A stretch of DNA of 63,702 nt, the filler included, from Psammoneis japonica (taxonomy: Eukaryota), in the NCBI GenBank assembly GCA_008632985.1. It is 4 parts of 4 records of this genome, joined end to end, with 100 filler letters (N's around TTAATTAATTAA, not from the genome) between each part and the next. Parts side by side here need not be neighbours in the genome. Positions count along the whole stretch, not along the records: positions 1 to 20,079 come from QPGO01000451.1; 3 more parts are not named here. The stretch is one strand, 5' to 3'. Numbering within the stretch: position 1 is the first letter of the stretch; every line of letters starts with the position of its first letter. Position numbers and translations under genes: made by a program. The notes under the pieces are model-generated. The model worked only from the letters and a program-made list of their open reading frames with translations, ran no database searches and had not been told where the DNA came from. Of this stretch, positions 1 through 46,552 are shown one piece after another.

Positions 1-289
1 AGTTTCCCAAACCCATGAACTGAAAATGTGTCTTGCAGTCAAGGTTTCTTTGTTGCACAACAGCATGTGAACTGCAAGTGTTGGAAATCCCTTCATTTCT
101 TTTGCTGGTGCATGTTTGACATGACAGTCTTCTTCATCATGAAAACAAAACAAAACCAAAATTCTGTCTTTAAAGTGCTGCTGCGCTTCCGCCCCGCAAC
201 TCCGGCAACAAGCCAACCCACACCCCCAGCACACCAATGGCGCGGCAGGAACATGTGACAATTGGCCAAGATCGGCATTGTCCGCAGAC

Positions 290-3200: not shown

Positions 3201-6060
3201 CAGGTGAGGTTCACCGTCGTCCGAAAACATCCATTCGACAGTGTGGAAAGAACATTTGGGCAGTTCCAGTTCGTGGCCTGCGGCACTCAACAGGTCGCAC
3301 CACAATTGGTTGTCCTCCTGCATTTTGAACGCAAGTTCAAGCATGCAAGGCTGAGGTGATGCTCGAAAATCATTGACTTGTTTAGATGTGTCATCCACGT
3401 GTCCTCGGTCAAACATTCTCATTGCCGTCGTTCTGTCCGGAGTTTCAAAGAAGGCGCCGTGAGCGTTGCGATCAAAAACATCAAAAAGACTGTCACATGT
3501 CTGGCTCCAATCAAATGGAGACCTGCCACTGCCTTGCCCCGTCCCGAGAATCGGCAACTCTTCAGAATGGGAATGTGAAGTCGGAGACAATCCGAGGACA
3601 GTTTTCAACCAACAACGTGCTTCATGCAGCGCAGTGTTGGCGACTTGGGTCACCTTCTTGGGCATGCCGTTACTTCGGTTTTGGACAGCAACCAAAGCCG
3701 GGATGTTCCTGTTGTGACACGAAGTGCAATCGTCGTCGCTGTTGACAGCCGACTTGCGCGACACCCGACTGGTCTCTAGCATCAGTTCCTCAAGATAAAC
3801 GGGAGTCTGGGCATTTTGGAAAGGACGAGTGCCGTAAATGCCGGGGTTGTGCAGCCTTCGATGTTCCATGTTTTGAGCCAGCGCTCTCCACTTTACACCT
3901 GTGATCAGCTGGAAATCGGCTTCATAGACATGAACAACATGCAGCCGGTGGATTTTGGTGTTGCCAGGCTCCTTGAAAATCACAACGTTGACTGTGTCCT
4001 TCCAATGGTCAAAAGAGCAACCCCATCGTAAGGCACAATTCAGAAGATTGAGGCGAATTTGGATCAAAGTTTGTTGAGTGCTGTCCAACAGAATCCGATC
4101 GGAGTCATCTTCTTGATCTGAAGCAGGAGCGTCCGTGTGTTGATGAGGCGCATGCATGGCTTTCCAGTGCCCCAGATGCAATCCAGAATGTGGGGAAGTC
4201 GAAGTTGACTCTTTCCAGCTTTTTATCTTGCCCTCTAATTCTGCCTCGGTCAAATGTTCCGACACCGCAACAGGGGATCGGCGTTTCAAATGAGCAACGA
4301 GTTGAGCTGCAGCGTCATTTAGAGAAGAAGTCTCGTAATCTCCGTCAAGCATGAGTTCCGCCACAACAGTGTCGCCTTTGAATCCAAGGTCTAAAGATGA
4401 GGGAGGAACAGTGGGAGGAGTGCCATGCGCCTGCCCAAAATGCTTCTGGCTCCGCACACGAAGAGCAGTTGCAATGTCTTCTGGAGCATCGAGTGTCATC
4501 CAATCATCACATTCCTTGGGATGTGTGTCAGGGTTCTGAGGAACTTGAACGCTGTCAATGCCAACATCCCGTTCAGCCTTGCACGATTTGATCTTCTTGA
4601 AAAGTCGGACCATCTCTTCTGCTTTTTGTACATTGTGAATGATTGAGGCTTGTTTTCTGGACTGTTTGGTTCCTTCCAAATCGAGAGCTGCCATTTTAGC
4701 TGCCATTTCTCGTTCACGATGCACGACACCATCCGCTCCGATCCTCTTACAATCAGTTTGAGCTTCTCGCAGGGCTGCTTGGCATTCTTGCAATGTCTCG
4801 GGAACAACAAAGGATCCTTTGAGTTCATCACGAATTCGTTGAATTTGGGCGACTCAATCGATCTTGGTGCGCATCATGGAAACCATGCGAGAGAAAATGT
4901 GAGTGCGGTGATGAAGGTCTGCCAACTCCACCGACCAATCGGGTTCGCGATGACGCCTGCAACGTTTGGCCGCCGCTGAGGAAAACTGCAACAGATCGCG
5001 ATCTAATCTCTCTGCCAGGTCGTGATTGGGTTCGCTGAGTGCCAAGAGCTGTGCAGATCTTTCCAAAACAGAGCAACTCTCCAGCATGGGACCAACAGCT
5101 TTCAAATGCACTGTTGCCTGAGGTTCAGATGATGCTTGGATATCTCGAAAACATGCTTTTGGAAGATCGACCGTTGGATTGCCAAACAATGCCATTGTGT
5201 CAAAGTCAACGTAGTGCGCTCGGTGATCGGAAGTGATGCGACACCCAAAGGCCTTCGCACCCTCCCAATCTGACAGCAGATGAAGCTCCCAGCAAAGCCA
5301 GAACAAAGTCAAGGCGTTTTGATCCACGGGCATGCGTGGAGAACTCAGTGTTTCCAATTATGTTGAAGAATGCATCGGACAAATTAAACCGTTGTGCCAA
5401 GCTCGCCAAAGAATCCGTGTCAAATTCGAAGTCCGTGTCAAAGTCGCCGAACAAGACCACTTCTCTGTTAGATTCAGCCGTGAACTCTTGGAGAATTTGA
5501 GACAAGTCTGTGCAAAAGGCCTTGCGTGGGTCCACCACTTTAGCTCCATTCTGTCGAAGGAGGCATTGTTGCTGGGCGAACGCGGCAGTTTTCCCTGGCT
5601 GGCGTTGGTTCTTGGCGCAAACTCTGCAACACGAAACGAACACAACTTGTCATCCATTGTGGCCGTCGAATGCTTGAACAGACCATTGCCCGAGGGGGTC
5701 GGAAAGTTGGGATCGGTGCCGTGCAGACACAGAATTGCATGACAAGAGAGCTGTTCCGCCAGGTTCATGTTGCGTCGAGAAAGGGGTGGCACTGGAGAAA
5801 AAAGTGCCTTGGCTGTGCAGCAGAGAGCCAGACACCGTGGACCTGCATGCTGAAAGAATGTCAAATTGGGTTGTGTCCAAACACACTTCCAATGTGCCAA
5901 CAATGTCGGCTTGGATTTCGTCAGCCACTTGGCAGCATTCGTTGACATCGCCACCGCGCTTGTCGAACTTGCACCCATTGGCATTGAATGTGTGTGAACG
6001 TGTGTGGTGTGACAACTTTGGGCAAAAGCCATCACCGACAGGTTCATTGGTTTTCAGACT
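290..6060 (-). pseudogene. pol: LINE ORF2: endonuclease, reverse transcriptase, RNase H, zinc knuckle; several frameshifts/stops
   Basis: Pieces 5650..6015, 5206..5643, 4854..5357, 1158..4793 and 763..1254. The C-terminus (GWRHLFTGRF...WWALW...HG) continues past an in-frame TGA to about 290. Confidence 0.85.
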
Positions 6061-6358
6061 CGAGAAATCGATGCGTCAATCAGCAGGCGGGAGATGATTT
6101 CGTCCATCTAAAAGGGATTGCCGTGCGGACACGGTCTCAGGAGAGGGGTCACCACTCATGATTGGGCCGTGCTCCTCCAAAGAGAAGACTGGGGCTTGTG
6201 GCGAGGAAGCAAATTGGAACCGCAATGGAGGGAGAAAGGTCGGTGCTTGCCAGTCCGTCGGAAAACCCGTGCAAGGGATGGTGAAGATGTGTTTTGATGA
6301 ATGTTGGGAGGGTGCCCAATGGTTTGTGGAGATGGGGGCAGCGAGATCCATCTCCTTG

Positions 6359-8075
6359 CTAAAAATCCGAATCTTTCCCATCGTTGCTGCGGTCGGGAGT
6401 TTGATTTTGGTTTTGCCATTTTCTCGTGGGACTAGCGGACGGGGCTGGCTGAGAGGCTTGGAGCAACTGGATGATCTCATTCATCTGATTCTGCATGCCT
6501 GAAAGTTTTTCTGAACATTGTGATTGCATGTTGTGCATTTCATTGGCATGTTCATCGTGTGGTTCACGCAGGGCCTTTTCATGACTAGATTGCATGAGGG
6601 TCACAGTGCGCTGAACCTCGGCCAATTGGACAGATGCAATCGATGAGCTCAATGATGATTGAGCAATCTGAGAATAAGAAGCCTGTGGAGACGCGATGCC
6701 AGGACAGCCGGTGCAACCAAAACTTGGAGTTTGGAAGGATGGAGGATTCGCAAACATCTGAGGAGGGATGGGGCGTGCAGCCAACTCACCATGACCTGAA
6801 ATCGCGGAGCGGTCATTGCCTCTTTAGGGGAAGGGTCAGGTGGGCGGGTGTTGCGAGGACCATCCACATTGGTCAAAGGAGACACGTCTGAAAAGGTGAG
6901 AGACTCCAGGCTGTGGATGCCAGCCAACATGATCGATTTGCTGGTGTCTGAAACTTCATCAAGAACACCGGAAACCTGAGGAAGGTCTTCGAACGGAGGG
7001 GTCGGATGAGCTTCTTTAGGCAGATTCGGAGTTTTGTTCAGAACACACGTTGAAATCTCAGCTCGGGCTTTTTGAATTGAGTTCGATGGACTGGGATGTT
7101 GTGTCTGCCAGTGGACAATGCGGAAGGGGAAGGGAAAATGTCAATTACGCCCTGAATTGCCTTGATGTGATTCTCCAAGCAGAACATCACATCCAGTGTC
7201 GTGTGCAGTGACGGCACGACGAAAGCATTGTTGTTGTGTCGGGCTTGTGTTTTAACTGCATTGTAGAATGCGAGCGGGGACACGCAGCTGGTTTTTGCCA
7301 CAAGAATGTGAGTCGGAAGTTTGTCAGATGCATGTGAGAGGGTTTTTGCTGCGGTGCGACAGTCCTCTTGTTGAACTTCCACCAAAAAGGTCACCGTGCA
7401 AATCGGAGCTGATGTTCTGTTGTCATCTGCTCGAACGGAAGTGGGAGCCAAGCGAAATTTCAGCATCTTGGTTTTAAAATCTCTGAGATCTTTGACAAAC
7501 AACTTCGTCGCAGCATCAATGGGAGTGTGTTTTGACGCAGTTGCAATAAAATGTGCTGGACTGGCCGTGTCAATGACAGATTCGTTCCAGCAATGACGCT
7601 TCAAACCCATGTTGTTTGTCTCCAAAATGTTTTGGATGTTGGGGTGGGAACAAATGTCACGCAGGGGTGCTTTTGCAAGAATGCGGCGACACAAACGATG
7701 AGTGACGGGACGGTTCTCGCCATTGCGAGTTGTCGAAATCTGGAAATGGCATTCGTGTTGGAGGGCAGAAATCCAGTCGGCGATGTTGACATTTGCAATC
7801 CTGGCATTGTTGTCATCCAATGCCTGAACTTCGTTGTTGAATGCAAACAGGATCTGACTGAGAACTTGGAGATGAGAGGTGACGAGGGCCATTGGCTTGC
7901 AAGTGGCTTCTGGACCACGAATGTCAAAACGAACAGTTGTCTCTTCGAACTGTCGTTCTTTCGATTTGGATGAAGGTTTGAGGGATGCTGGGTCGACAGT
8001 GGTGTCGTCAGCGGTGGTGTTGTCTTTGTTTGCAGCAGCGGCATTGCTGCCGGCAGTGGCGGAAGATGACGCCAT
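6359..8075 (-). pseudogene. LINE ORF1, frameshifted, with C-terminal coiled-coil-like segment
   Basis: ORF 7038..8075 plus fragment 6359..6784 (VQLAEVQRTVTLMQ...MQNQMNEIIQLLQ) lie directly upstream of the endonuclease. Confidence 0.6.
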
Positions 8076-9109
8076 GGTGATCGGTGTTTCTACGGGGAGC
8101 CTGGTGTTGAAAACACGCAGGTGAATTCAACACTGACAAACGCAGGAAAGCAGTCTTCTTCACCATGGCTTGCTCATGCATCAACTTGGGTCATTTTGTG
8201 TGGCATGTGATGTGCAGCCAGTGGCTCTGGTTTGCTCCTTGATGGTCTGAATGCTCTGCTCAACTTCCTCAACATGGTCCTTGGAATTTGCAGACACAAA
8301 GATTTGCACCATCTGCAACTTCCGTCAGCATGTCCTTGAACTCGGGATCACACTTGATGAAGTCAATCTTGAATGGGGGCATGTTGCAGTGCCAGTGAAT
8401 CATGTCCAAATCTTTGCAAATGTGCTCATGCTTCTTGGACTTCACCTCACACTTGATCTGCACTTGATCATCAATGGCACACAGCAGCTTGGCACTGCAC
8501 ACTTCCACAATGCCAATGCAGAGGGTTGCACCTTCTCTCTGCTGTTTGCAAATTTCAGGCTGTTGAGGTGACTCCTCTTGTGGGCATGGCATGCACACTT
8601 GGTCTTGCTCACAGGAATTGCTGGCTTGGTGCACATGCACACAGACTGATGTCACTGGCCTTGAACACCACAACTTGTTTGCAAGCCTTCCCATCCAGCA
8701 GACAGAGCTCATTCACTGCTCTGTTGTTGCGCACAATGCAGCACTTGCTCTTCACATCCTTTGGCCTCAGGATGTTTGCTGTCAACTTCTGCAACCCAAG
8801 CTTCACATCACCCCATCCTGGCACAGTGCAGTCTCTGTCCAAAGTGTCCACTCCTGAGCTGGTGGACAGATCAATCTGACTTGATGCCTGCATCAGTTTG
8901 GCTCAAACTCATCTGCAACCTTTCATTGATCTGCTCATCTGCTTGGAACCCATGCCATGGAACATTTCTCTTGCTCTTGCTGGAGCTGGCTGATTGGTTG
9001 TGTCTGCGGGTGTCAACACTGATGTTGTTGCTGCTCACTGATGAACAGTCTTTGTCTCTCATCTGTGTGCAACTCATGACATCAACATTTGCCCCTGTGC
9101 TTCATCCTC

Positions 9110-9720
9110 TTTGGAGAGCCCAGTCAGACAAAGGATGGTGTCAAACCCACTCTGTGGAACACTTTTCAAGAGATGCATCTGCTGTGAATCTGGCCTGCTG
9201 GAAAAGTGTTGCAAGGAGAATTGTCCTCCTCCCACATGGGCCATTCAGATGGGAACCTGCATTTGGAAATCTTGGTGGGAGCTGTGGGAAGAACAAAACC
9301 AGGAAGTGCATGGTCACAATGCAGGCACCAGAAAACCATCACAGTGTAAACAAGCCAAAGAGCTGAGCTCACAGCTGCACACAACAAATGCCAAGAGCAC
9401 CTTGCCAAGGACAGAGACTTGCTGTCAGACTCAGTGGAGGATCACATGTCTCACTCCAGCACCTTGCAGATTGTGAACTGGATCACCATGGCAAAATTGC
9501 ATGTTCAAAGAAAGCCTCAAGAAGGCAAAGTGCTCCATGCTTTGTGGCACTTGCTCTGCTGCCAGTCATTTTGGCAGGGTGTCACCAGCAGTGCCCATCC
9601 CGGCCAATCCCTGACAGCTTCTGCTGCACTTAACTGTGCACTGGAAGTGTGGGTTAGCCAGTGCTGGCCTGGCTGGCAAAGGAGTGGTGGCACTTAAAAT
9701 TTAGATTTGTTTTTTTTCAT
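9110..9720 (+). mobile_element. 3' fragment of a related LINE (ORF2 C-terminus + 3' UTR)
   Basis: WAIQMGTCIWKSWWELWEEQNQEVHGH aligns with the C-terminus of the LINE at 100-8150 (WAATIGSHVWEQWWALWDSHDDAAHGH). The 3' UTR motif ctggaagtgtgggtt is shared. Confidence 0.7.
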
Positions 9721-11429
9721 CTGTGTGTGACTCTGTCCCCTGGTGTCCAGTTTCCTGCCAGTTTTCTTGTGCCTGTCCTTCTACAAGAAGATCTTGTCCT
9801 TGTCCTTGCAGTCCAGGGACTGGTGGTTTGTTTTGCCACAACAGCAGAGGCCCACTGCAGCACCACCTTGGTTGCCACTCTGGGCATGACTTTGGTCTTG
9901 TGGGTTCTTGCACTTGTGATTGGTCCCGTCTCCATTCTTGTTGTTGGGGTGTTGTTCATTCTTCTTCTTGTTGTTGTGATGCTTGCAAGGGTCATTGTCC
10001 TTTGGACAGTTCAGCAGCACATCCATTGCCTTCTCAAGGTTCTTCAGGTGTGAGTCCCTTCCCAGGCTGCAATCTCTCACAATGCTCCACTTGAGGCTCT
10101 TGCAGAAGCAGTTGTTGCTGTTCTCCACACAGCCCATGTCTCAAATGCAGCTTCTTTCAGCTCTTTCTCCTGCATTGCGTCAGTGCAGTCCTTGTGCTCT
10201 TCTTGGTGTTCTTGATGAATCCATCTGTCATCCTGCTGTCAAGACAGTTGTTTGCAGCATCTTGTTGATTCTTAAATCTTGACAGGTGGTCATTCAGCAA
10301 CTCATGAACAATGGCACCCAGTGGTCAGCAGTCACACTTCTTGTGCAAAAAGACAATTGCTGCTCACATTTTCAGAACACAAAATGCAGCTCTCACTCAA
10401 CTCTGCTCTTTGTTGTCACAAATGGCATGCCAGCTGGCACACACCTGTGATCTGGACTCTGGCTGGAGAGAGTCAACAAAACCATGGGCATGGACACTTC
10501 AAACAAGACCTTCTCTCTCAACAGATTTGGAGTGGCCTCTAGATTCCATTTGGCTGGCAGGCAGAGTGGTGGCTGTGAGCACAAAAAACAAAAGCAGCGC
10601 CGCAGCAAGCCAGCAATGATGCTGACACTCATCATCCCACTGGCAGTGAAAAGAAGGCAACAAAATGTGTCTGCATGAGGGTGGGGGCTCCAAGTCCACT
10701 GAGGCAAGAAGGGAGATTGTCTTGACAGAGAATGAGCAACTCACTTGCCATGGGTTGGATGTTGAGAGAGGCATCAGCAGAAAACGGCAGCACAACATGG
10801 TGTGGCTCATGCCAGAAGTTGGTCAGTGAAAAATGAATTGTCAATGAAAAATGAATGAGTGCTGCATCCAAGCACTTTTGTGACACCGGGACCTGATGGA
10901 CCAAGAAATGAAGGCAATTTTTTCATTGTCAGCCATCAAGGAGAAAGAAATGGCATCAGACCTCCAGTGCTTCAGGCAGAGTTGGTGAGAAATGATGACA
11001 GATTTGATGTCATTCAACAGCTGTTAGACACAACAGGAAGGACAAAAAGAGTGGGGAGCCTGCCTCAGTGGCCCAAGTCCAAGCAAGATGACACTGGCAA
11101 CAAGTGCAGGAGTTGTTGGCACTTTGTTGTTTTTGGGCTTGTTCTTGTTGTGCCTGCAACTGTTCTGGGGTTCATGCTTGGCCAGAGCAAGACCAAGCCA
11201 CCTGCTCAGATCCTGGGTGTGAATCTAGAGTGGCTTTGGTGAGGATGTGTGCTTCTGCACTTCCAGTGTGCACACCACATTGGTCAACAGCACTGTTGCC
11301 ACATTTGTGGACAATGAATGACAACCTTGACCCTGAAACCATCATCATCTCTGAACCTGAGGGCAAAGAAATGTCTCACAAGGACAGCTGGATGGAAGGA
11401 GGCATGGATTGTGGGCCAAGTGTTGCTTT

Positions 11430-11630
11430 GAACCCAAAGGCCCACATGGATGGCTCATGGATCAAGCAACAAAGTGTGCTCTAAATTGGCAGGTCAGAGT
11501 GGGTGTGTTGGCATGTTGGTGTGACTCTGACTTTGCTGAGAACAGAGGACATCATGCTGCAGGCACCAACTGGAGTGCCTCCATCTTCTTGTGAGTGCTT
11601 TTAGCTGAACTGCCAGCTGCTTGGGTGCTC
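11430..11630 (+). pseudogene. Possible highly decayed LINE RNase H remnant
   Basis: HMDGSW followed, after a frameshift, by SAF-AEL resembles the DGS...SxxRAE RNase H motifs. Weak. Confidence 0.25.
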
Positions 11631-12892
11631 AGCATTGGGGGGGGGAAGATTTGCATCAGCGGAGCAGGTCATGGTCTGCCTGTGCAAAGAGAAGTGCTCT
11701 GGAGAAGAATGCACAGCAATTGGCAACACCAATGTTTTGACGCTGGAAGATTTCCCCAGCTGGGTTAATCAAAGACCAGAGGAGCACAGCCCAAGAGAAA
11801 AAGATGGGATGCTGTTGCCCGCTCTCCTTGTCACAGGAGCTTTTTTGTTCTTTCTCCTCTCAGCCTGTTGTTGCCACACTGATCAACTCATTGATGGCTT
11901 CTTGAATGCATTGACCTGACTCTGAAATGTTTCTCAAGTGACTTGCAGCACAGGTGCAGCCGCAGGAGGCTCACCGTGGCCAAAAGAGTGATTGGTGATG
12001 GGGAGGTGCAGAGTCAGAGCATCAGCAGGGAAGCAAGAAATGAGGCAGAAGAACAGAGTTGGTCCAGTGCTGAACTTGCTCTCTGCTGCTGGCTCTTGGT
12101 GCCTTTGTTTGCTTTTGCTTGAACTTCTAGAGCAGAGAATGGTGGCACTGTTGACAGAGAGGGAATGAGGAGGAGGTGCTGTGTGCATGAAGCATGAGTT
12201 CTTCCCGTGTGATCTTCTCCATGGGACAACACAACCTGAGCAGCATCAGTGTGTGCACAGCACCCGGAAAAGAGCCCCCCCTGCCAAAAAGCTCTTTAAG
12301 AAGGATTTTGTCTTGTGGCCTGCCAATGCCATGAGGTTCTCAGGAAGGATTCAGGGCCCCACACTGTGCTGCACATGTGCAATGGGATTGAACATGTTCC
12401 TCTTCTGATGCCAGAAATGGTGGCAATCATCATGATCTCATCTCACAAAACAAACCTGCTTCAAACACAAAAAGCAACAAACAAGAAACAACAACAATGA
12501 CCATCATTGCAAGCTCTCCTCTTGTTTTCAAGCATCTCAACCTTCTCCCTCATGGGGCCCGAGGTGGAGTGACTTGATTCTTTGTGCTTTTGCAAGGCAT
12601 CAATTTCACAGAAGAGCTCATCACAATGGACAACTGGCCCAAGGAGAAGCAGCAATTTGTTGAGTCAGGCAAAAATTTGTTGGGCACTGTCCCTGTTTTG
12701 TGCTCCAGTGGTGTTGCCCACCCCCAACACATCACAGCTTCTTGATGCTTGGCTTGCATTCACAAGGTCACCAGCTGAGATGACTTCAAAGATTGTGTTC
12801 AGGATCTGGTGGTGGCTGACAAGCATCAGGGCTTCTGTGACCATTGGGCAAAGGTGACCTTCAGTGGGACTGATGATGAGAAGGAAGAACAC

Positions 12893-13668
12893 AAGATGAC
12901 TCAGATCATCAAATGTCTGACCAAGTTCAACTCACTTTACAACTCATTCAAGATGGAAGAGCCATTTTTGAGTCACAGTGCAAAAACTGGTCAACCATTG
13001 TGGGGCACTGCCGCCATGTGTGGCCTCTTGTGCAACAACATCTTGACCAATTACATCACTGAAGAAGACTTGAAGGAATGCTCTCAGCTGTCATTGGTGA
13101 TGTACAAAGCACATGCAAAGATCCCTGCTGTGAAGGAATGGCTCAAACAGCTCAACTGAGCTGTCATTCCAGTTGGCAAAGCAGACAAAAGTCTCTTGAA
13201 AGTTTAAATGTGATGACAATGTCATGCAAATGTTTCAATGCACTTTGCAACTTGTTCAAGATGGATGAGGTTTTCCTGAGTCTCAGTGCGAAAATGCACA
13301 ATCCTGTGTGGGGAGACTCCACCGTGTGCGGCCTTTTGTGTGACAATGTGTTGACCAATCACTTCGTCAAAGACTGCTTGAAGGAATGGTCAAAGCTCTG
13401 TTGGTGGTGTGCAAAGCACATGCAAAGATTCCTGTGGTGAAGAAATGGCTCAAAAAGCTCAACTGAGCCCATGCCATTCAACAAGATGGGTGAGGTTTTC
13501 CTGAGTCTGTGGGGCGCAGCTGCCATGTGTGGCCTTTCATGCGATGATGTGTTCACCAAGCACTTCACTGAGGTGACTTGAAGGAATGGTCTCAGCTGTT
13601 GGTGGGACACAAAGCACATGCAAAGATTCCTGGGGTGAAAAAAAAAGGCTCAAACAGCTCAACTGAGC
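12893..13668 (+). repeat. Three degenerate tandem units (~190-270 bp) with coding-like character
   Basis: ttcaagatgga...gccatgtgtggcct...ttgaaggaatg...aaagcacatgcaaagat...ggctcaaacagctcaactgagc recurs, ending at about 13161, 13468 and 13668. Confidence 0.85.
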
Positions 13669-15599
13669 TCTTGTTCCAGCACCGGACATGGACAAAAGTC
13701 TTTTTTTTTTTTAAGTCTGGTGTAATTTGATGACACAAATTGCTTTTGTTGGGGCAGCAACAGGACTTTGTGACAGCGGTGGTCAGCCAAAACAAAGTCA
13801 GCCTCATGGCCAAACTCAAAAAACCATGTGTTTGACATGCCAACCAATGTGTTGGCTGCTGCAAGTGCCTGAGTCACAACCTGACATGCCACTGCACACA
13901 GGTCAAATGCTGTTTTGAGGTGTGTTGCCAAGAACCCAGCTTCGTGATGATTGAAAGAAGTGGGTCCTGCTTGTTTGCCTCAAGTCAACAAGTGTTTGAT
14001 CTGGCACTCATTTTTGTTGACACCCAATGATTGTGCAGCAGCAGCATTGCATGGTCAAGCTTGCTGCGCCCTTCAACTTCACTTGGGATCTTCTCAAAGC
14101 TGAGCAGCCAAGGACAGCACAGCAAGTTTTGCCTGTGCCAAGACAAGTCTGCTGAACCAATGGCCTGATTTGATGCACTCTCCAGGGCCCAGAGGTGAGT
14201 TCACATGCAACTTCTTGCAGGAGCACAAAGAGCATGTTCACCTGGAAATCATGAAAGGAACAATGGGAGGTGGCACATCCAGAGTCATGAGTCCATGACC
14301 AAAGAAGTTGCTGAGACAAATTGCACAAAGAGGAAAACAGTGCTGAAGATGACACAACCTTCAGAGTTGTGGTCTACAAAAAGAACAGGGATGGTGAGAA
14401 TGCTCTTGATGTCTGGCAAAAAGGCAAGATTTTGGCAGGGCAAATGAGCAAAAAAAGTGGGGGGTTGGCTTGTTCTCTCAAACAATGTTGTGTTGGCCCC
14501 CTGCGCCCACCAGAACTGGCTGATTCTCTCTGCAGGAGATTTGTGATTTTGTGAATCCAAACCCAAAGAGTGTGCACAGTTGTTCCAACACAGGGCCCCA
14601 GTCATTTTAGAAACACCAAAACCATGGAAAAGCTGGCTCAATTTTTTGGCTCAGGATTCTGCACAAAATTTTCAGCACCAAAAATTGGCAACTTTGACGT
14701 TTTCTAGCAACACCATCATTTTTGAATCTGTGCAAATCTCGTGCGCACATTCAATTGTGTTTTTTGGCAATTTCCAGATGAGAAAACAACATGATGTCAC
14801 AGTTGCTGGCGAAAAGCCCATCAGAGTGTGTGTTGCAGTGATTGAGGCTGCCTGTCTCATTTTGCAGGCAACTGATTGATGCTGTGACAGATGGCCAGTT
14901 GTTCATGTGGCAAACATTTGTCAACTGTGACAGAGGGACAAACACTCCAGTGCTTTGCTGTGGGGTCTGACCCCCCCTCCTGAAAAGAGCAACACCGTTC
15001 ACTGTGAAACAGCCACTCCCTTTTCCCTGTGAGAGTGCCCACCCTCTGTCCCCACAGAACCTGTTGATTGAGAGTGCAAACCCCTGCATTTTTGTGACAT
15101 GCATGTGCAAAAAGTGTCAAAAAAGACTTTTGTTTTAATCATTTGTGATGCAATTGTGGAAAAATGTCCTGCTGCATTCTGTGCTCAGTGCACCAACAAC
15201 ACAGCCATGGCAGAAATGCTGTTCATTCTCAAAAACACAGTGGGGTGCCAAGTGTCTTCCTTCACAACATGACAGGCTTCTGTGGCACAACCAAAACACA
15301 ATGAGAAAAAGTTGCTTGATGCCCCACCTCCATTGCGCTCAATGAATGGCATTTCAGCCACTGTCACGTTGTTGGCAGGGTGAATGCAGGAAGCACTGGG
15401 GGGCTGTTTTTCTTCCACAATTGCACCACAGCATGTGATTGAAGTGTTTTGCATTTTGATGCTTTCACAAATCATGCAAGCAAAAAAAAAAAGAAATTTG
15501 CACCAAAACAAGTAGATTTGCACCCTTGAAAGCATTTTCATTGTGACATTTTACATTGACATTTGTGTTTGATTTGAGTGGTGCAATGCATTGTGCACA

Positions 15600-16235
15600 C
15601 AGTTGCCAATGATTGCCAATTTTTTCAATGGTCAATTTTCAACTTTGTGGAACATCTTCCAGGAGCTGCATCTCCACAAGTCAGGACTTCCAGAGCAGCG
15701 TCAAAAGGAAAACCAACCACCTCTGGTGTGGGCAGCACAGATTGGCTCATGCACTTGGAAATCATGGTGGGACTTGTGGAAAGCTCACAATCAGGTGTGG
15801 TGCATGGGCATGATGATGCCAACTCAAGGAAATCATCTCAGCACTTGCAGGCTGAAGGAGAGCTCACAGCTGTCCACAACAAATGACAAGAGCACCTTGC
15901 CAAGGACAGAGAAGTTTTGCTGGACTCAGTTGAAAGATTGCATGAGTTGCGCCACTTCCAAGATGCTGAAATTTGATTGCCGCGGCATGGTCACACCTGA
16001 AAGAGAGCATCAAGTGCTCTGCACTTTGTGGCACTTGCTCTGTTGCCAGGTTGCTTTGGCGGGGCATCACATTCTGGTGGCACCCATCTTGGCCAATCAT
16101 CTTGGCCAATTCCAGTCAACTTTTGCTGCTCTTGACAGTGCACTGCTGGAAGTGTGGGTTGGCCGGGGCTGGCCCAGCTGGCAAAGGAGCAATGGCACTT
16201 GAAATTTTGGGTTTGTTGTTTTTTCTGTTGATGAT
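15600..16235 (+). mobile_element. 3' fragment of a related LINE
   Basis: FFNGQFSTLW...WAAQIGSCTWKSWWDLWKAHNQ; colinear with 9110-9720, including the 3' UTR. Confidence 0.7.
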
Positions 16236-17639
16236 TGCCAGTTTGCTGCTTTGCCATGTGCCATTTCTGATTTTGGCAATTGGGTGCCATGCATCCAATG
16301 GGTGCATTCCTTTGCCAAACTGGTGCAGGGTTTTGTGTGCTCCATTCATTTTTGCTTGCACTGTCTTCTTCTTTGTTGTCTTTTCCTGTTTCCTCTTCCA
16401 CATTGTCCTTGCCATTGCTGAAAAGCTCAAGCTTGGCTTGTGTTTTTGCCACCTTCTTTGCCAGTTTTTTGCAGTCAGTGCACTCTTGCCCCTTTTGTTG
16501 CTTTTTTCTTGTCATTGCTGTGCCCTGTGTCAAGCTGTGCACCTGGCTCACTTGCCCTGTCTTGCTTTGCTGCTTCATGCAGCTTCTTGAATTGCTGTGT
16601 TCCTGCATCTCCACATGAGTTGTGCTGTTTTGCTGGGTTGGTGCACACAGGCACCGGGGGTGTTTCATTCCCATCATTCTCTCCATTGACATCTCCCTCT
16701 CAAATCTTCTTCTCTTTCATGGCCTTGTGCTCCCAAATTTTCCATTTGTTTTCCAACATCAACAGCCCCAGAGCCTTGTTGCTTGCCACAGTGAGCTTTG
16801 CAGCCTTGCTGTTTCCTGGCTCCACCATCTTTCTCCACACTGCAGTGCTCTTTGAGAATTTTAGCACCTTGTCAAAGAACCACCATGTGTGTGCTTCCTT
16901 GTTGGTCCATTTTTTCACCCACAATGGTTTCCACAGGCTTGTCCTTCCAAGTTGGCAGGAGTGGTTCTTCAATGGGTGCAACACCCTTTTTTCTCTTTTT
17001 TTGTCTTGTTTCTTTTCCGTTGCCACTGCACGCTTTTGCACATGGATTTTCTTGGCTTGTTCTGCTGTCAGCATGACTTGCACAAATGAGCGTTGTGTCA
17101 GCAGCATTTTCAGCACCTTTTTGGCAATGTTTCCCACACAGCAGCACTTGCCTCTCATTGTGCTCTTCATTGTTGACTGGGTGATGGTGTTCCTTTTTGT
17201 GTTGCCTGCACTGGTGGTGCACTTTTTTGCCCAGTGTTCCCATGTTTCTGCCCAGTCTCACTTGCTGAATCTGCCACTGGCCATGTTCTTGTGCATTGGC
17301 TGTGATGCTTTTCCACCACTTGACATGTCTGCCTCAGCAAAAAATTTTGCTCTCAGAAACAGCTCTTTCCCAGCCACCTCTTCAACTTTCTTTTGAGAGA
17401 TTGGCATCCTCCACTTGCTCCCACCCCCTCCAATGCTGCCACCACCAGCAGGCTGGGCAGCTCTTCAGCAGATGTGTCCTTCCTTTTCTTCCACCATGCT
17501 GCCTTTGCAGGTTGCAATTTGCTGTGTGAGCTGTCCATCAGGTCCCCTGTTTGCCATCTTGGGAGTGAATGTGAAGCACTCCATCCTGTGACAGAGCCAC
17601 TCATGTGTGGGGTTTGGACAATTGATGCCATGGTGGAAG

Positions 17640-17800
17640 AACAAGGCTGGCTTCCTGGCACCGGCGCCGGCTGACCCACACTTCCAGCACACCCCATGAG
17701 GGGCGCAGCAGAAGTTGTCACAGTTGGCCAGCTGTGGGGGATGCCCAACACAGAAACAGCTGAAACTGAGAGAACATGACACTTGAAGTTCGCTGCAGTC
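17640..17800 (-). mobile_element. Short LINE 3' end remnant
   Basis: Minus strand tggccaa..cttctgctgc..tgctggaagtgtgggtcagcc matches the 3' UTR motif of the other three copies. Confidence 0.55.
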
Positions 17801-19707
17801 TTGCTGGTGATGCACACATTGGCTGCACCACAACCACAGAGGACAGTTGCATTTGGGAAAAAAATCAATGGGAGCCACAAAGGAAACCAAAATGGACCCT
17901 GGAATTTGCTTGAGCAACAGACACTAACTGGCATCATGAGGCATCTCATTTGCACACCTTGAGCAACCGCAGCAAGAACAGCAAGATCACCACTCAAAGC
18001 AGTGAGCTTGACCAGCCAGTGGATGGAAGTGAGGTGGCACAGGGCTTGCAGGTGTGAAACAAGAAGCCGTGGTGTAGATGGACCTTGTTGGTCATCTGAA
18101 AAAACATTTGTCTTGTGCAAAAACCACACTGGATCTTGCGCAGACATGCCGACATGCACAGCAAAAGGACAACCATCACTTGGTGCCAAAGGAAGACTCG
18201 CGGTGACACTTGTCAGCACCACAACAGAGGAGGTGCTTTCACCAAATGGAGTGAAGCACTTGGTTGGCAAATGGAGATAAAGAAGGTTGTTGAGGACCAA
18301 TGGGCATGAGCACAAGCAGTTTGGAGGGTTGACGCAGCAGTTGTTGGTGGCTGTTGCTGTTGCAAGTGGAATTTGTGCTAAAATCCATGCAGAAAATGTC
18401 TTGAGTGTGCAGAAAATTACAAAAAAGTTCAACAAGCATGCAAACCACAAGGAGTCAATGCCAGTCATTTTTCACTTAGAAACATTGCCCAAGAACATGC
18501 TGAAATGAGGGTGTGCCATTGGTTGAAATGGCCAGAATGGTCTTGGGAGACCCAGCAAAATGCCATCTGAGAAGGGCGACATCAGCAGCACAGGAGCACA
18601 CTTGGAAACACATGCAGGTGTTGTTGGTGGGCAGCTGCCACAGATTTGTCCCCACAGTTCCAGCATGGCAATGACCAATGTTGAGTGTCATGAGGGGTCC
18701 AAACCATCCATTTTTGTCTGTGCCACATGAGGGCAAGCTGACCCTCAACATCTTGTGCAACTCATCAACATTGTTCTTGTTCAGGGCTGACCACGCATTG
18801 TTGCCCCTTGATCCAGCAGTGCACTCATCTCTTGTGTTCTTCTCTTCACCATCAATGTGGTTTCCAAAATGGAAACAACATGTTTCAACTTAACTCTCCA
18901 TGTGGCTTCCACCGACATCCCAAAAATTCCTTGGTTTTGTGTGCATTCTAGGCCCCTGTTTTGCCCAAACATTGCAGTCAGCCTTGCACCATTGTTGCAT
19001 TGGATTTGGACAGAACTCATCTGTGTCTACATTTTCATGTCATTCCAAAGCAGAGTTGCACAAATTTCATCCACCATCATGCCCACCAAGGGATTGGCCA
19101 TTTCCTTGTTCTTGGGATCCAAAAAAACCTTTGCAAACTTCTCATCTGTCAAGTTGGTGTGGCAGATCTGTCCTGCTTGTTTGTCCCCAAAGGAAACACC
19201 AAAGTCCCTCATCATCAGCTGTTGGAAGAGAGCAGATGGGTCCATGCCTTCACAGCGGAGATTGGGCAAACACTTGTCCCTTGAATTGGTGAATTGCTGT
19301 GGCCAGAGCTGACAGATGAATGTCTCTCACCAGTCAAGCCAGTGTCTTTGAACAGCACATGAGCACTTCAGGGACACCGGTGGTGCCACCACCACCTGTC
19401 GCCACAGCATTCCATGGATGACTGTCATCTGGCAACAAGTGCTTTTGAGCATGTTTGCAGAAAGCATGACTTCAGGATGGGAGGGACTGTCATGCTTGAG
19501 ATCAATGTCTTGCAGCACACAGTCAAGCTGAGCTTTTGACTGCAATGCATCCAAGTTGGCATTGGCTGCATGTTGAGCTTGTCATTGCAGCAGAGACCAA
19601 CAGCCTTCCCACCATTGCACACCACCTTGAAGGACCAGATCTCACCAAAATGTCCATGACAAAGAAACAACTGGCAGATGCCTTCCTGTGTCAATGCACC
19701 AGCTGCA

Positions 19708-19708
19708 G

Positions 19709-19805
<97 letters not shown>
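19708..19805. repeat. (GTT)~32 microsatellite
   Basis: Perfect trinucleotide run. Confidence 0.98.
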
Positions 19806-20079
19806 GGTGACCTGCGCAGTGTTGACTGCAAGAGATGCACGAGCCCTGCATTGGGCAGTCCTTGCATTTGAAGTGTGTGCAGCCCAGCTCATCAGCCAAA
19901 ACCTTCACAAACTCATGATGCTGAAGTGACCAGTTGAAGGGTGGTGGGTTGCTCAGTTTCTCAAGCTCCACCTTGCTCTCACAAAGCTGAGTGGAGTCCA
20001 AAATGTCTGCAACCACAGCCTTTGTCTTGGCAGACTTGTGTTTGTTGAAGTTGTCATCAGAGTCAAACTGTCCAGTGCA

Positions 20080-20179
20080 NNNNNNNNNNNNNNNNNNNNN
20101 NNNNNNNNNNNNNNNNNNNNNNNTTAATTAATTAANNNNNNNNNNNNNNNNNNNNNNNNNNNNNNNNNNNNNNNNNNNN
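20080..20179. other. Artificial contig spacer (N44-TTAATTAATTAA-N44)
   Basis: 100-nt N run with a six-frame stop linker, identical at three places. Confidence 0.98.
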
Positions 20180-20235
20180 ACGGTTGCACTGTCGAACAGT
20201 GCCACTCCTCTCATTGTTGCCGTGAAAAGATCAAG

Positions 20236-21535
20236 ATGTCGTCTCCAGCACAACCGGCAAAGAAGAGAAAGAAAAATGAGACCATCAAGCCAATGAGCCC
20301 GAGACTTCAGGCAGTGTTGAAGAGAACAGGTGCGCAGGCAGCGCATGGTGCATTGAAATCAGAAGTGGAGAAGGTGGCCAGAAATGATCTCTTTCCACAG
20401 GTGAAGTTTCTCAGTCCATCAGAATTGGCAAGCAATGGGAGCGTCTCAATGTTTGTCAAGAAACAGATTGCTGGTGGCAACATGGACACTTCAAATTGGT
20501 CAGGAACTTGGGAGGAATGGGCAAAAAAGGCGGTAAAAAGGCAAATTGACAATCGCAGAAACACGGTGTGTTCAGCTGTTGGGGCGGAGGCAATGGCCAG
20601 CAAGCCAAGTGACCAATGTGTGTGATTGGAGAGTTGCGCGCATCTCACAAGAAGATGACGGTGATGCTTTGTCTGTGTGGGCGTTGTCACTGAGGAAGAG
20701 GGAAAGGAAAAAGAAAAGGAACTCAAGGCGGCAGAGAGGAGGAAAAAGAGGAAAAAGTCAAGCCGTGACAAGAATGAAGAGAATGACATCCCGTTTGTGC
20801 CGACATGGGATCCGTTTGGCCTGGACACTGTCACCGGCGGTAAACGAAGGAACAAGCAGGCATGCAAGTGGTTCTGTGATCACATCCTGCCTCAAACCAA
20901 GCAAAAGCAGGCGTGGAGCAGCACCGTCAAAACTGGGAACGCACAGGTCTCACAGTTGTTTGCGGTCGGTGACGAAGCTTTGGCGCTGTCAGCCATGGAG
21001 AATTGTTGGCAGGTGTGGGCATGCAGGAACAAGGAGGAGGCGGTGGAAGAATTGGGTGAGGAAATGGAGCCCGAAGAAACAAGGCCTGCCCCTCAAGCAC
21101 ATGAAGCCAAAGAAACAACGAGTGTCTTGGGGAGACGACGGAATCAATCGGTTCAACGATTCATGCAAAGAGGTGACGAAAGACAGAGACTCCAAGGAGG
21201 GCAAGGAGTTTGAAAAGTGGCATGTGGAGATCAAGAAAAGCGAGCACAAGAAGTCCGGAGAAGCAAAAAAGAAGAAAAAGAAAGCACCGACCGGTGATGC
21301 GGATGAGGTGAAGGCAATGAACAGCCCAATGGTGGAGAGCAACAGGGACGACAACAGCAACGACAATGAGCAGGAGGAAGGCGCAAAAGGCAAAACGGAC
21401 AATGGAGGAGACGAGTCTGATGGAGACAAGTCCGATGATGATCGCTGGCTCAGTTTAAGAGAGTTGCAGCAAGAAAATGTGTGCACAGTTAACACAGCAC
21501 TCGGTCATTGCACTGCAGATGTAAAAAGGGATTGA
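20236..21535 (+). pseudogene. Decayed two-exon gene of unknown function; inferred intron 20600-20680, frameshift near 21090
   Basis: Protein-like ORFs 20236..20625 and 20677..21213 join in frame across an 81-nt intron-like gap. Motifs include LFPQVKF, W..(K/R)..IDNRRN, GDEALAL..MEN.W, WGDDGINRFN..KEV..DR and an acidic tail. Confidence 0.6.
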
Positions 21536-22944
21536 CTTAACCGATGAAATGCTTTTCTCATTTAAAACAATGTTTGCAAAAATTGACAAACCAAAGATTG
21601 TGTGGAAATGCAACCACGCATTGGCATGTGGCAACAAGGTGGAGGCAGATGTGGTGATGTGGGTGCAGTGAAAAACAGCATGCACAATTCTCAACAAGTT
21701 GTTGCAACATTGGTGTGGCAAACTTGCAACCAGAGGTTGGCCTTTCATCATGTGACAACAATGTTTTGCAACATTTTGACAAATTGTCATCATGCAAATC
21801 TACACATTTTCAACATTTCGTGCACTCTGATGCTCGCCTCACCTTTTGTGCTCTTGTCCTCCGCTGATTTCAGTTGGCACCAACTCACAACTGATCACTT
21901 TGGCTTCTCTTGCCACTCCTCCACTCCTTCTCAATGAGCCGCTCAAACTCTTGGCTGCAACATTGTCCATCACTCATCCGCCCACGCTCTCCGCTTCCTT
22001 TCCAACCTTCACACTGATGCATCTCCCATCCCTTCTTCGAAATGCCCTTTGCACTGTCTCGCGTGCCCCTTCTTTGCACCCGCCCCTGCAGCTCTGCAGC
22101 TCTCCACCGTGCCCACTCCCGGCTTGGGAGGTCTGCAATTGGTGCGGGAAGAAGAGGAAGAGAAAGAGCTCCGTGCCGGCCCATCCTCTTGCTGCTTTCC
22201 ATTCCTTTGCTGATTTTGCTCTTTGGCTTTCTGCTTAAAACAAAAAGCCGCCGCACCGGCTGGCCACACTGTAAAAAAGCACGGCGCTCACTGGCCTCGT
22301 GGAGACCGACAAGGGGAGATGACCTCATTGCCCGTTGATGACGCACTTGGAAATCACCCCCCGCATCTGCCACATTGAACGCATTCAAGTTGGCGTTTGG
22401 AAGCGAGCTGCTGTTGCTCATTCTTCCGAAGAGCTTTAGCAGCAAGCCAAACAGACAGTCTAAAAGCGCCATTGTGTTCGGCGGAGGATGCCATCCGCCG
22501 CTGCACCCACGAGGCTCGCAGGACAGTCACACATTGTGAACCAAGACGGAAATGTCAGAAATGATCCACTGCCGGATGCCGCTGCGGCGGCACAACAACC
22601 CCAACAACTGATTCCGGCGGCCAACAATGCCCAGAACGTGCCGCCAGCACCGGTGCATCCTGTGGCGCTGGCAGCACCAGGAGCAGTGGCACAACCTGCC
22701 GCAGCGCAGGGAGGACAAGCCCCGGGAGGGGCTCCCCAACAGCCGGCACCTCAAGTGCCACCCGTCCCGCCAGCAGGTCCCGTGGGGCAGGGAGCTCCAG
22801 TGCCACCAGCAGCAATCCGGGCCTGTTGGGATTGCTGCTCACATGCCACAAAGGATCCGTGCGCCGGCAACCATGCGGAAATCATGCAGGACTTCATGGT
22901 CCCACTGCAAGGGCAATCCCGCTGCAGTCCCAACGTGTTGAGGA

Positions 22945-23220
22945 TGACAGGATTTGAACAGGATTTGGGTGCGCGCGAAATGTCGCGCGCTGTTTGGTTT
23001 GCGGCGCACAGTTTTGTGTGCTTTAGTTCCGCGCGTTCGCGCACGATGTAGTTTGCTTTCGAGCCACAAGGCTCACAAGAATGACAACAGCAGCCCGATT
23101 GTGCCGACTTGCACGTCTTTCGGCTCCTGCAACAGTCTCTGAGCGGAGACTCATCTGCTGTTTAGACAGCAGCAAGGAGTTGTTGTTTGAATTCTTGCCA
23201 TTTGCCTTCAATTTCTGTCA
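22945..23220 (+). repeat. 5' LTR (276 bp) of Copia-1
   Basis: Direct repeat of 29779-30053 with 6-bp inverted termini. Confidence 0.95.
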
Positions 23221-23231
23221 GATTAACAGTC
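23221..23231 (+). promoter_or_regulatory. Primer binding site, complementary to a tRNA-Asn(GUU) anticodon arm
   Basis: GATTAACAGTC abuts the LTR; its reverse complement is GA-CT-GTT-AA-TC. The same sequence abuts the LTR of Copia-2 (45394-45404). Confidence 0.6.
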
Positions 23232-24159
23232 TTGCTCATTGTCAACCCATTGAGCAACCGCCATCGTCGTCGTTGATTTACCAACGACGCTGTTTCAATT
23301 CTACGTGGACCTCCGTGTGCATTCTACATACATCGGCAAGTCTACGCGCATTCAATGCCAGGGCATTGGCAGGAAGTTAACGTCACCGTCAAGTCTCCTC
23401 ACCGCTGGACATCTGGATTGATTGCACTGCCTTTGATCGCTGAAGACATGCATTCAACGGTCATGTCCAAGTCTGTCCTTGATCCTCATCCCTTGACACA
23501 CCCATTCATCGGTTGACGGTCAAGAACCCCACATGTTCAAGGATCTTCGTCGCTGAAGACATGTGCACACACACACATCCTCACGGCCAAGAACCTGCAC
23601 CCACTCTTCAGACTGCGGTTTTGCTGCCACTCCACAAGCACACCAAGTCCATTGCACCTGATCTGCCCCGGACTGCTGGTGCTCTGCAGTTCCACTGGGT
23701 CCACGAGGACGACTGTGAGAGCAAGCAGCCGTGATTGCAGCCTGCGTTGGGGCGAGGGTGCTTTCCCGCATTTGTTCGTTCGTCCACAGCGCCCAACGCC
23801 TGCGTCAACTGGCCAGCCTGATCGGGAAATCCAACCGATGTAAAACAAGAACGGTTCGGGGGTCTTGTCCACCTCCAGTCAGCTCACCTGCAGGGGTTTA
23901 CAACCCGCTGCTCCGCTTGCAAGCAACCCAAAGCGCCACCAGCTGTGGGTTCGGACGTGCCGGCACAACTCTACGGACCGGATGGGAAGTTTAGCACTTG
24001 ACAACGAACGGGATGGCAAAGCCCGGCGACTTCTGATTTTAAGATAGATCAAGATTTCAAGTCAAGTCCATTTCAAGTCAAGTCTGTTCTCACCCAAGCT
24101 TCAAGTCCACCTTTGCTTCCCAACAAGAATTGCTTGTCCTGACACCACTTTTGTCTGCC

Positions 24160-29760: not shown

Positions 29761-29778
29761 CTCAAGCAAACTGGGGAG

Positions 29779-30235
29779 TGACAGGATTTGAACAGGATTT
29801 GGGTGCGCGCGAAATGTCGCGCGCTGTTTGGTTTGCCGCGCACAGTTTTGTGTGCTTTAGTTCCGCGCGTTCGCGCGCGATGCAGTTTGCTTTCGAGCCA
29901 CAAGGCTCACAAGAATGACAACAGCAGCCCGATTGTACCGACCAACACGTCTTTCGGCTCCTGCAACGGTCTCTGAGCAGAGACTCATCTGCTGTTTAGA
30001 CAGCAGCAAGGAGTTGTTGTTTGAATTCTTGCCGTTTGCCTTCAATTTCTGTCGCGTGCGATGCAGTTTGCTTTCGAGCCACAAGGCTCACAAGAACAAC
30101 AACAGCAGCCCGATTGTGCCGACTGACACGTCTTTCGGCTCCTGCAACGGTCTCTGAGCGGAGACTCATCTGCTGTTTAGACAGCAGCAAGGAGTTGTTG
30201 TTTGAATTCTTGCCATTTGCCTTCAATTTCTGTCA
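29779..30235 (+). repeat. 3' LTR of Copia-1 with tandem duplication of its last ~182 bp (30054-30235)
   Basis: The LTR runs to ...tttctgtc at 30053, restarts at gcgtgcgatgcag and ends tttctgtca at 30235. Confidence 0.93.
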
Positions 30236-35768: not shown

Positions 35769-35921
35769 TTCCATCACAGGCCGCGCCTCAGCCTTCCAGC
35801 CGGGCCCACCCACCCACCCAATTGCACACCGCCACTGCCTGCACCAGTGCACGTGGGTGGTGCCGGAACGGCCACACCGTTCCAGCTTGGGAATGGAAAG
35901 GGACCAACTGCACTAGTGAAG

Positions 35922-36300: not shown

Positions 36301-36337
36301 TTGTGCATACACACCACAGAAGGGCAACAAGTTCAAG

Positions 36338-46491: not shown

Positions 46492-46552
46492 CAGCAACAT
46501 TGCTCCCGCATGTTGTGCGAGGCAACGAAATCTACAGAAACGAAACTACGAA

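Follow-up and report, generated by a model that had tools for sequence, protein, structure and literature searches.

The window analyzed here, a 63.7-kb stretch from the Psammoneis japonica assembly GCA_008632985.1, consists of four pieces separated by artificial linkers, and its identifiable content is retroelement throughout. Within it, the dinucleotide TA has been largely replaced by TG and CA, most severely in a repeat-derived region at 8200-20079, for which the preliminary description had proposed that the surviving TA sites are mostly YTAR (a pyrimidine before and a purine after the TA) and that this reflects a mutational target biased towards TAY. Throughout, TA sites were grouped as YTAR, mixed (YTAY or RTAR) or RTAY, and relative dinucleotide abundance is given as rho. 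The features on which the analysis draws are listed below (LTR, long terminal repeat; LINE, long interspersed nuclear element; ORF, open reading frame; RT, reverse transcriptase).

8200-20079, no strand assigned: studied region, repeat-derived; TA rho 0.05, CpG rho 0.10, TG/CA rho 1.85; 37 TA left
82-8220, minus strand: LINE-like non-LTR retroelement, nested in an older repeat; TA rho 0.12, CpG rho 0.79; 27 YTAR, 35 mixed and 2 RTAY sites
1158-4853, minus strand: ORF of 1231 amino acids in the LINE-like element; language-model features resemble reverse-transcriptase clusters (0.93)
5653-6075, minus strand: upstream ORF in the LINE-like element; weak Exo_endo_phos match (E 3.6e-4), under the cut-off
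9246-9724, plus strand: LTR-like direct repeat, copy 1; 69% identical to its partner at 15738-16228
15738-16228, plus strand: LTR-like direct repeat, copy 2; partner of 9246-9724
20080-20179, 40392-40491 and 60608-60707, no strand assigned: artificial linkers N44-TTAATTAATTAA-N44, of six-frame-stop design
26364-29918, plus strand: Ty1/copia pol ORF (RVT_2); frame open, Cys or His at 22 of 32 conserved Tyr
30625-30925, no strand assigned: uneroded block; TA rho 0.59
37879-39717, plus strand: gypsy RT/RNase H ORF; YxDD reads CVDD
38987-39960, plus strand: uneroded block in the second gypsy element; TA rho 0.74
40492-45606, minus strand: second copy of the copia family of 26364-29918, cut by a linker; TA eroded, CpG partly decayed (rho 0.53)
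46058-46493, plus strand: Ty3/gypsy 5' LTR; 93% identical to its partner at 52640-53075
47578-48465, plus strand: uneroded block in a gypsy ORF, with sharp edges; TA rho 1.02; internal baseline
47630-50446, plus strand: gypsy pol ORF (protease, RT, RNase H, integrase zinc domain); RT YxDD reads HLDD
52640-53075, plus strand: Ty3/gypsy 3' LTR of the same element as 46058-46493
58.2-59.4 kb, no strand assigned: integrase remains

The linkers were masked in the TA counts, and 8200-20079 is free of them. Left unmasked, they inflate naive TA counts with artificial TTAA-type sites and give rise to spurious repeat families (D1 and I12-I14).

The studied region itself yielded no Pfam family at the curated cut-off in its six read-through frames, and the ten longest ORFs overlapping 7000-21000 gave no family match. 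A match to TFIIA in the region (E 5.9e-4; 20.4 bits against a cut-off of 36.2) was rejected as low complexity, its residues coming from a (GTT)n array. A perfect (GTT)32.7 microsatellite occupies 19708-19805; under the flank rule described below, (TTA)n would go to (TTG)n rather than to (TCA)n, and no sign of such an origin was seen for (GTT)n. Contigs of public sequencing runs were placed on 1-19600, 1938 of them from run X1 (141 million letters in total, about 35x for exact pieces) and 3 from run X2. Over 8200-20079, the X1 contigs reached depths of 4 to 25 times single copy at the flanks and stayed near single copy at 10465-14388, and the loose ends of 15 contigs at 9717 mark a repeat boundary. 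Contigs of the same run bridge from 57 to 8229 and from 81 to 8221, bypassing the LINE-like element. The resemblance of the ORF at 1158-4853 (minus strand) to reverse transcriptase, as judged by language-model features, is taken as a lead only.

Direction, strand and timing of the TA loss

Across eight sub-regions of the window, TA rho ranged from 0.05 to 0.38 and TG/CA rho from 1.3 to 1.85, while three spared blocks kept a TA rho of 0.59 to 1.02. Only TA was depleted; rho for AA, CA and GA lay between 0.8 and 2.1. The spared blocks measure 0.3 to 1 kb, have edges sharper than about 100 bp, and sit inside continuous ORFs of TA-eroded gypsy elements. The stretch homologous to 38987-39960 is eroded in the copy at 58.5-60.5 kb. 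Such blocks possibly reflect targeting by tracts, conversion from a copy that is still intact, or chimeric assembly.

The direction of the change can be read from conserved tyrosines in the copia ORF at 26364-29918. A search of a large protein collection with this ORF provided the outgroups; 30 of the 120 listed homologs, metagenomic and 57 to 69% identical, were aligned, and a column was called conserved when at least 80% of these 30 proteins carry Tyr. At the 32 columns so defined, the ORF has Cys in 16, His in 6, Tyr in 6 and Phe in 4, and the second copia copy, over 16 columns, has Cys in 12, His in 2 and Tyr in 2. Other conserved residues are mostly intact (Leu 52/57, Phe 23/24). The overall composition agrees: Tyr makes up 0.6% of the copia ORF against a median of 3.8% (range, 2.9 to 5.0) in the 120 listed homologs, and Cys 4.3% against 0.9%. 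The catalytic YxDD is altered in both gypsy RTs as well. TAY codons have thus become TGY or CAY even where Tyr is functionally needed, a mark of mutation and not of selection. Scanned with the copia protein, metagenome contigs yielded a single locus (48% identity, TA rho 0.60), which is not eroded and was unusable for polarizing changes.

Avoidance of UpA in expressed RNA is reportedly widespread, and it would speak for selection against TpA or UpA as the source of the loss, exerted for instance by UA-cleaving nucleases or through codon adaptation of active elements. This explanation is contradicted by the destruction of conserved and catalytic Tyr, by the alteration of non-coding LTRs after insertion (see below), and by blocks with TA rho near 1 within the same ORFs. 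A rho of 0.05 is far under anything that selection against UpA is known to give, and we regard this account as scarcely credible.

The two LTRs of the gypsy element (436 bp) differ at 29 positions, with no transversions. Eight differences are CG<->TG/CA, 2 are TA<->TG/CA, 16 fall into 8 adjacent TG<->CA doublets, and the last 3 are single transitions of other kinds; 26 of the 29 lie at dinucleotides that were once TA or CG. An adjacent TG<->CA doublet is the form expected of a former TA mutated on opposite strands in the two LTRs, and only about 0.35 CpG-derived doublets are expected in the pair, as estimated from CpG counts. In these 436 bp, 10 former TA sites have been altered, compared with 3 other single transitions. 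Since the LTRs were identical at integration and now differ at TA sites, the changes are post-integration. In the 3' LTR region of the copia element (29871-30234) there is also a 181-bp tandem duplication (2.0 copies, 95% identical), whose copies have already diverged at former TA and CG sites.

Both strands are affected equally. In oriented coding pairs, 30 sense and 28 antisense events were counted at 112 sites at risk, and no strand-coordinated runs of TG or CA products were found in 7 alignments (z from -0.3 to 1.9). Among 40 of 3390 variant rows, one paralogous contig was usable; where the window reads CA or TG, this contig has TA at 8 sites and CG at 14. At the 8 lost TA, the mutated adenine has a 3' pyrimidine in 5 and a 3' purine in 3, a count made by eye and too small to weigh.

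These observations bear on RNA editing of retroelement transcripts by ADAR- or ADAT-like enzymes, with the edits becoming permanent whenever an edited transcript is reverse-transcribed during transposition. A T or U at -1 is typical of ADAR, ADAT and TadA, and all identifiable elements of the window are retroelements, as this explanation would have it. It predicts A->G changes on the sense strand only, made before integration; what we found instead are equal sense and antisense events, both Tyr->Cys and Tyr->His replacements, and LTRs of one element that differ mainly at former TA sites. Moreover, ADAR favors a +1 G, that is, the TAG context, and TAG is among the best survivors here. The targets of a comparable process in Bigelowiella natans are, according to the main text of a preprint, integrated DNA viruses (bioRxiv 10.64898/2026.01.13.699255). 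RNA editing is contradicted on these points and very unlikely.

By the genetic code, no reading frame can gain a stop codon when TA changes to TG or CA, and existing TAA and TAG are lost. On both strands of 8200-20079 together there are 35 TAA and 25 TAG, beside 601 TGA, and 20 ORFs of at least 150 amino acids overlap 7000-21000; frames this long and this numerous stay open, in all six frames, because the process makes no stops and takes away two of them. The elements are inactivated by missense changes alone, chiefly Tyr to Cys or His, and never by stops. ORF length in hypermutated DNA is accordingly no sign of a live gene, and such elements, which retain long open frames and appear intact, pose a risk for annotation.

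A second decay is seen at CpG, which has nearly vanished from 8200-20079 alone and is reduced by about half in three other stretches, while rho for CG is 0.79 to 0.81 in 1-8199 and 20180-36000, both equally TA-eroded. The CpG decay in 8200-20079, with its TG/CA excess, is independent of the TA loss and presumably originates from 5-methylcytosine. The LINE-like element at 82-8220 has kept its CpG, has lost its TA, and sits nested in an older repeat that has neither. It follows from this CpG-intact, TA-eroded nested element that either TA erosion is much faster than CpG decay or CpG methylation is confined to some elements. The 68 CpG surviving in 8200-20079 are flank-biased too, those beside A or T having decayed faster than those beside G or C (observed/expected, strand-symmetric: CGA/TCG 15/33, CGT/ACG 24/33, CGC/GCG 52/40, CGG/CCG 45/30).

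Flanking bases of surviving and lost TA

The 37 TA left in the 11,880 bp of 8200-20079 comprise 24 YTAR, 12 mixed and 1 RTAY, so the earlier statement that the survivors are mostly YTAR stands. Every position named in support of it carries the context given for it: the YTAR sites at 9631 (TTAA), 9655 (TTAG), 9695 (TTAA), 9702 (TTAG), 10273 (TTAA), 10540 (CTAG), 11025 (TTAG), 11226 (CTAG), 11482 (CTAA), 11602 (TTAG), 11766 (TTAA), 12128 (CTAG) and 12297 (TTAA), and the exceptions at 9347 (GTAA), 9782 (CTAC), 12938 (TTAC), 13052 (TTAC) and 13103 (GTAC). A first-order Markov model predicts 12.2 YTAR, 18.1 mixed and 6.7 RTAY, and the binomial probability of at least 24 YTAR is 7.6e-5. Among 2000 dinucleotide-preserving shuffles, YTAR averaged 12.3 with a maximum of 22, never reaching 24, and RTAY fell to 1 or fewer in 9. 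When counted against expectation, the residual NTAN contexts are therefore non-uniform, and the shuffles rule out chance or base composition as the source of the YTAR excess. The fraction with Y..R flanks is 0.65 for TA and 0.17 to 0.28 for the other 15 central dinucleotides. Both flanks matter, with a 5' Y in 31/37 and a 3' R in 29/37; the shortage is deep for TAT/ATA (1 observed, 14.7 expected) and slight for TAC/GTA (13 observed, 16.7 expected).

The bias recurs in other eroded parts of the window and grows with the degree of erosion. The counts of YTAR, mixed and RTAY were 27/35/2 in 1-8199 (17.8/32.0/14.2 expected), 39/51/13 in 20180-36000, 57/87/25 in 46001-53000 and 13/3/0 in 60708-63702 (4.7/8.0/3.3 expected); in 40492-46000 (18/29/7) and 53001-60607 (28/35/14) the YTAR excess is not significant. 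The three uneroded blocks, pooled (n = 137 TA), serve as an internal baseline and contain 26 YTAR, 73 mixed and 38 RTAY, with RTAY in excess of YTAR. The rest of the window (n = 480 TA) shows 208/221/51, which differs from the blocks at p = 2.7e-9 (chi-square), and 8200-20079 differs from them at p = 1.1e-7. Within the gypsy ORF at 47630-50446, the uneroded first 836 bp have classes of 12/34/17 with 2.9% Tyr and 1.4% Cys, and the eroded remainder has 23/21/0 with 0.3% Tyr and 3.8% Cys (class difference, p = 3e-5).

Measured against this baseline, relative survival is 8.0 for YTAR, 3.03 for mixed sites and 1.34 for RTAY, with odds ratios (OR) of 2.64 (p = 5e-5) for the first step and 2.26 (p = 0.002) for the second. 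Since survival falls geometrically with 0, 1 and 2 TAY, each strand contributes independently, that is, multiplicatively. By +1 base and relative to A, survival is C 0.56, G 0.94 and T 0.26 in the rest of the window, and C 0.35, G 1.0 and T 0.03 in 8200-20079. A two-strand survival model with Markov priors fits the studied region as 24.3/11.4/1.3, with a ratio of the hazards before a 3' pyrimidine and a 3' purine (hY/hR) of 1.9 to 2.1. The same ratio is 1.8 to 2.2 in 1-8199, 1.5 to 1.8 in 20180-36000, 1.3 to 1.8 in 40492-46000 and 53001-60607, 1.9 to 5.2 in 46001-53000 depending on the assumed ancestral rho, and 3.5 to 5 in 60708-63702. With four separate rates, one per +1 base (A 1 : C 1.5 : G 1.3 : T 3.0), the fit is better than under the Y/R model (p = 2e-13).

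Pairwise comparison of repeat copies points the same way. At sites where one copy keeps TA, the other copy had lost 47/137 adenines followed by Y and 35/207 followed by R (OR 2.57, p = 2.8e-4). The Mantel-Haenszel OR across 20 alignments, some of which overlap in LTR sub-repeats, is 2.52 (p = 4.8e-4). Baseline survival, the survival models, the pairwise copies and the doublet analysis given below thus all lean in one direction. The product contexts TGN and CAN, as observed over expected, carry no flank-rule signal, as expected near saturation. Overall, the preference for a 3' pyrimidine is real, about 2- to 3-fold, acts per strand, and is at least as strong for T as for C. The survivor bias is extreme because some 95% of the TA have gone, the preference itself being modest. 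Of the TAY-biased target put forward earlier, the bias and its action on each strand hold good; its size is smaller than the survivors suggest (about 2-fold), and the pyrimidines are not alike, T ranking above C in the four-rate fit. It was also rightly described as not absolute.

A different origin of the YTAR excess would be an enzyme blind to flanks, with YTAR sites shielded, for instance by a bound protein or by adenine methylation at TTAA-, CTAG- or TTAG-type sites. Two palindromes, TTAA (9) and CTAG (5), are indeed found among the YTAR survivors of 8200-20079, besides TTAG with its complement CTAA (10 together). In the doublet analysis, from which five redundant alignments were dropped and in which identical flanks were required, sites lost in both copies numbered 13/45 for YTAR, 57/90 for mixed and 27/44 for RTAY (p = 0.0016), which puts mixed sites near RTAY and leaves YTAR alone different. 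The survival values nevertheless fall in two nearly equal steps (8.0 to 3.0 to 1.3), both significant, and the per-strand model yields the observed 24/12/1, a pattern that shielding of whole sites does not predict. We consider protection of YTAR quite unlikely.

Proposed mechanism and comparison with known systems

The best explanation is probably a TA-specific transition mutator that targets adenine and prefers a +1 pyrimidine. The adenine of 5'-TA-3' in integrated double-stranded DNA would be converted so as to read as G, and either strand would be struck independently, the top strand giving TG and the bottom strand CA, until old transposon DNA is nearly saturated. Dinucleotide specificity, direction, two-strand symmetry, post-integration timing and the flank bias with its per-strand multiplicativity are shown by the data. 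The modified base would be the adenine rather than the thymine, and it would most likely be deaminated to hypoxanthine by a DNA-acting enzyme that finds transposons by a putative mode of recognition. This enzyme would need T at -1 and would work about 2 to 3 times faster with a +1 pyrimidine (T >= C > G >= A). YTAR would present the slow context on both strands, and with about 95% of the TA gone, this would be why the survivors are mostly YTAR. A separate and slower CpG decay, presumably from 5-methylcytosine, overlies it in 8200-20079.

Several results weigh against this reading. The cleanest test, competition within mixed sites, had the 3'-Y adenine mutated in 23 cases and the other in 12 (p = 0.09), and Bradley-Terry rates (A 1, C 2.0, G 1.15, T 2.24) were not significant (p = 0.30). 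Antisense adenines in oriented coding pairs had no Y preference (Y 11/47, R 17/65), and Tyr->His changes, counted by eye, were independent of the preceding base (R 2/10, Y 4/18). The flank hierarchy varies by method, with T 3.0 and C 1.5 in survivor models and C 0.37 and T 0.29 as pairwise rates, and by element, since the gypsy element in 46001-53000 loses TAC most (43 to 5) and that in 36001-40391 loses TAT most (34 to 0). The latter stretch as a whole has no flank bias (28/42/27), because more than half of its TA sit in an uneroded block. The blocks used as baseline are coding and may themselves stem from chimeric assembly or gene conversion. No deaminase domain was detected in the 126 ORFs scanned in the window or in the six read-through frames of 8200-20079, and the known DNA-active ADAT2, from amphioxus, prefers GAA and TCG, not TA (PMC10354150). 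Finally, the sequence by itself would suit an adenine target in TAY and a thymine target in RTA alike.

The last point leads to the view that thymine is the modified base, through a dioxygenase of the TET/JBP type or another T-directed activity at 5'-TA, fastest in 5'-RTA; oxidized thymine on transposons would mispair with G and give T->C. By strand symmetry, all observations fit such a target equally. There is also a precedent in dinoflagellates, in which TET/JBP homologs produce 5-hydroxymethyluracil, a base that is enriched on transposons and replaces thymine preferentially in TA and TC dinucleotides, as described in the accessible sections of PMC11572971. Those same sections, however, hold no evidence for T->C hypermutation driven by 5-hydroxymethyluracil. 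TC is not depleted in the window (rho 0.8 to 1.4). The X1 contigs, at 141 million letters, are far under dinoflagellate genome sizes. Thymine modification seems rather unlikely, and adenine remains the preferred target.

A broader interpretation is held more tentatively and is in our view possible but doubtful: a transposon-wide, near-saturating, TpA-directed DNA-editing defense, possibly in a second organism, that would act post-integration and in tracts through an undescribed double-stranded-DNA enzyme. This would be an adenine deaminase or a thymine modifier, and its flank rule, an obligatory -1 T with T >= C > G >= A at +1 and without a UACG, GAA or UAG signature, would fit no characterized adenosine deaminase. 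Weak stacking of a pyrimidine-flanked A, which should favor base flipping, is a possible physical basis.

Among known systems, fungal repeat-induced point mutation (RIP) of ascomycetes is alike in its dense transitions at one dinucleotide, on both strands of repeated or mobile DNA, post-integration and with sharp boundaries. RIP changes C to T at CpA, raising TpA and creating stops; the process described here turns TpA into CpA or TpG, raises G+C and makes no stops. The two are mirror images, the direction in the window being opposite to that of the RIP signature. A literature search for a TA-depleting, RIP-like process turned up no precedent beyond the B. natans preprint, its other results being standard papers on fungal RIP.

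APOBEC3 editing and ADAR hyperediting are likewise forms of restriction by deaminases, and they too mark retroelements with transitions in a specific context. APOBEC acts by C->T on one cDNA strand and ADAR by A->G on RNA, on one strand only. Unlike either, the present process strikes both strands of integrated DNA and is slow at +1 G.

TadA, the base editors derived from it and ADAT2-ADAT3 convert A to I and need T or U at -1, and the preliminary description had likened the TA(C/T) preference to the UAC substrate of the TadA family. The likeness holds for the T at -1, TA alone being depleted in the window, and the +1 C of TadA agrees in direction with the flank rule. Beyond this the analogy is weak. 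The natural substrates of these enzymes are RNA loops, and here T at +1 is mutated no more slowly than C, losses are greater for TAT than for TAC, and a +2 G is not favored. TACG was not specially lost (28 in the baseline, 85 in eroded sequence; ratio 3.0 against 3.5 overall), the depleted contexts being TACC (1.5) and TACT (0.95). T at -1 is common to TadA and to fungal ADAT-type mRNA editing, according to the available part of PMC10027721, in which the bacterial TadA motif is UACG and the fungal editing favors A or G at +1. The latter preference is opposite to the flank rule of the window.

The closest likeness is to B. natans. In mutation-accumulation lines of this organism, 231 of 302 new mutations fell in integrated giant-virus and virophage regions; with one exception they were A->G or T->C changes, each of these at TpA, and the de novo events occurred at about 1000x background (Mettrop et al., bioRxiv 10.64898/2026.01.13.699255, main text). 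The preprint further describes TpA-depleted coding sequences enriched in reverse-transcriptase and DDE Pfams, defines a TpA-depleted cluster as three consecutive 1-kb windows (one of five windows being singled out), counts 124 such clusters, and proposes an ADAT2 homolog as the enzyme. Its main text, Fig. 2B and the supplements aside, never uses "flank", "context" or "trinucleotide". As in B. natans, the changes in the window are at TpA only, go to TpG or CpA, affect either strand, and lie in integrated foreign DNA, far above background. Unlike there, they are near saturation (TA rho 0.05 to 0.2) across entire 20-kb pieces made up of LTR and LINE-like retroelements, and they come with sharp-edged spared blocks, a CpG-decay overlay and a +1 flank preference measured here. 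By that cluster definition whole 20-kb pieces would qualify here, a faint indication that the process may be more widespread in this DNA.

The first description of TpA-specific hypermutation in invading DNA dates from 2026, and the flank rule offers a concrete fingerprint for its enzyme, checkable against the published de novo events, candidate deaminases and thymine-modifying enzymes. The window adds that the process reaches retrotransposons at a saturating level, on DNA, post-integration and on both strands. The system is a further case of the kind of TpA hypermutation described in B. natans, and it usefully extends that description by a flank rule, by the post-integration timing and by inactivation through missense changes alone.

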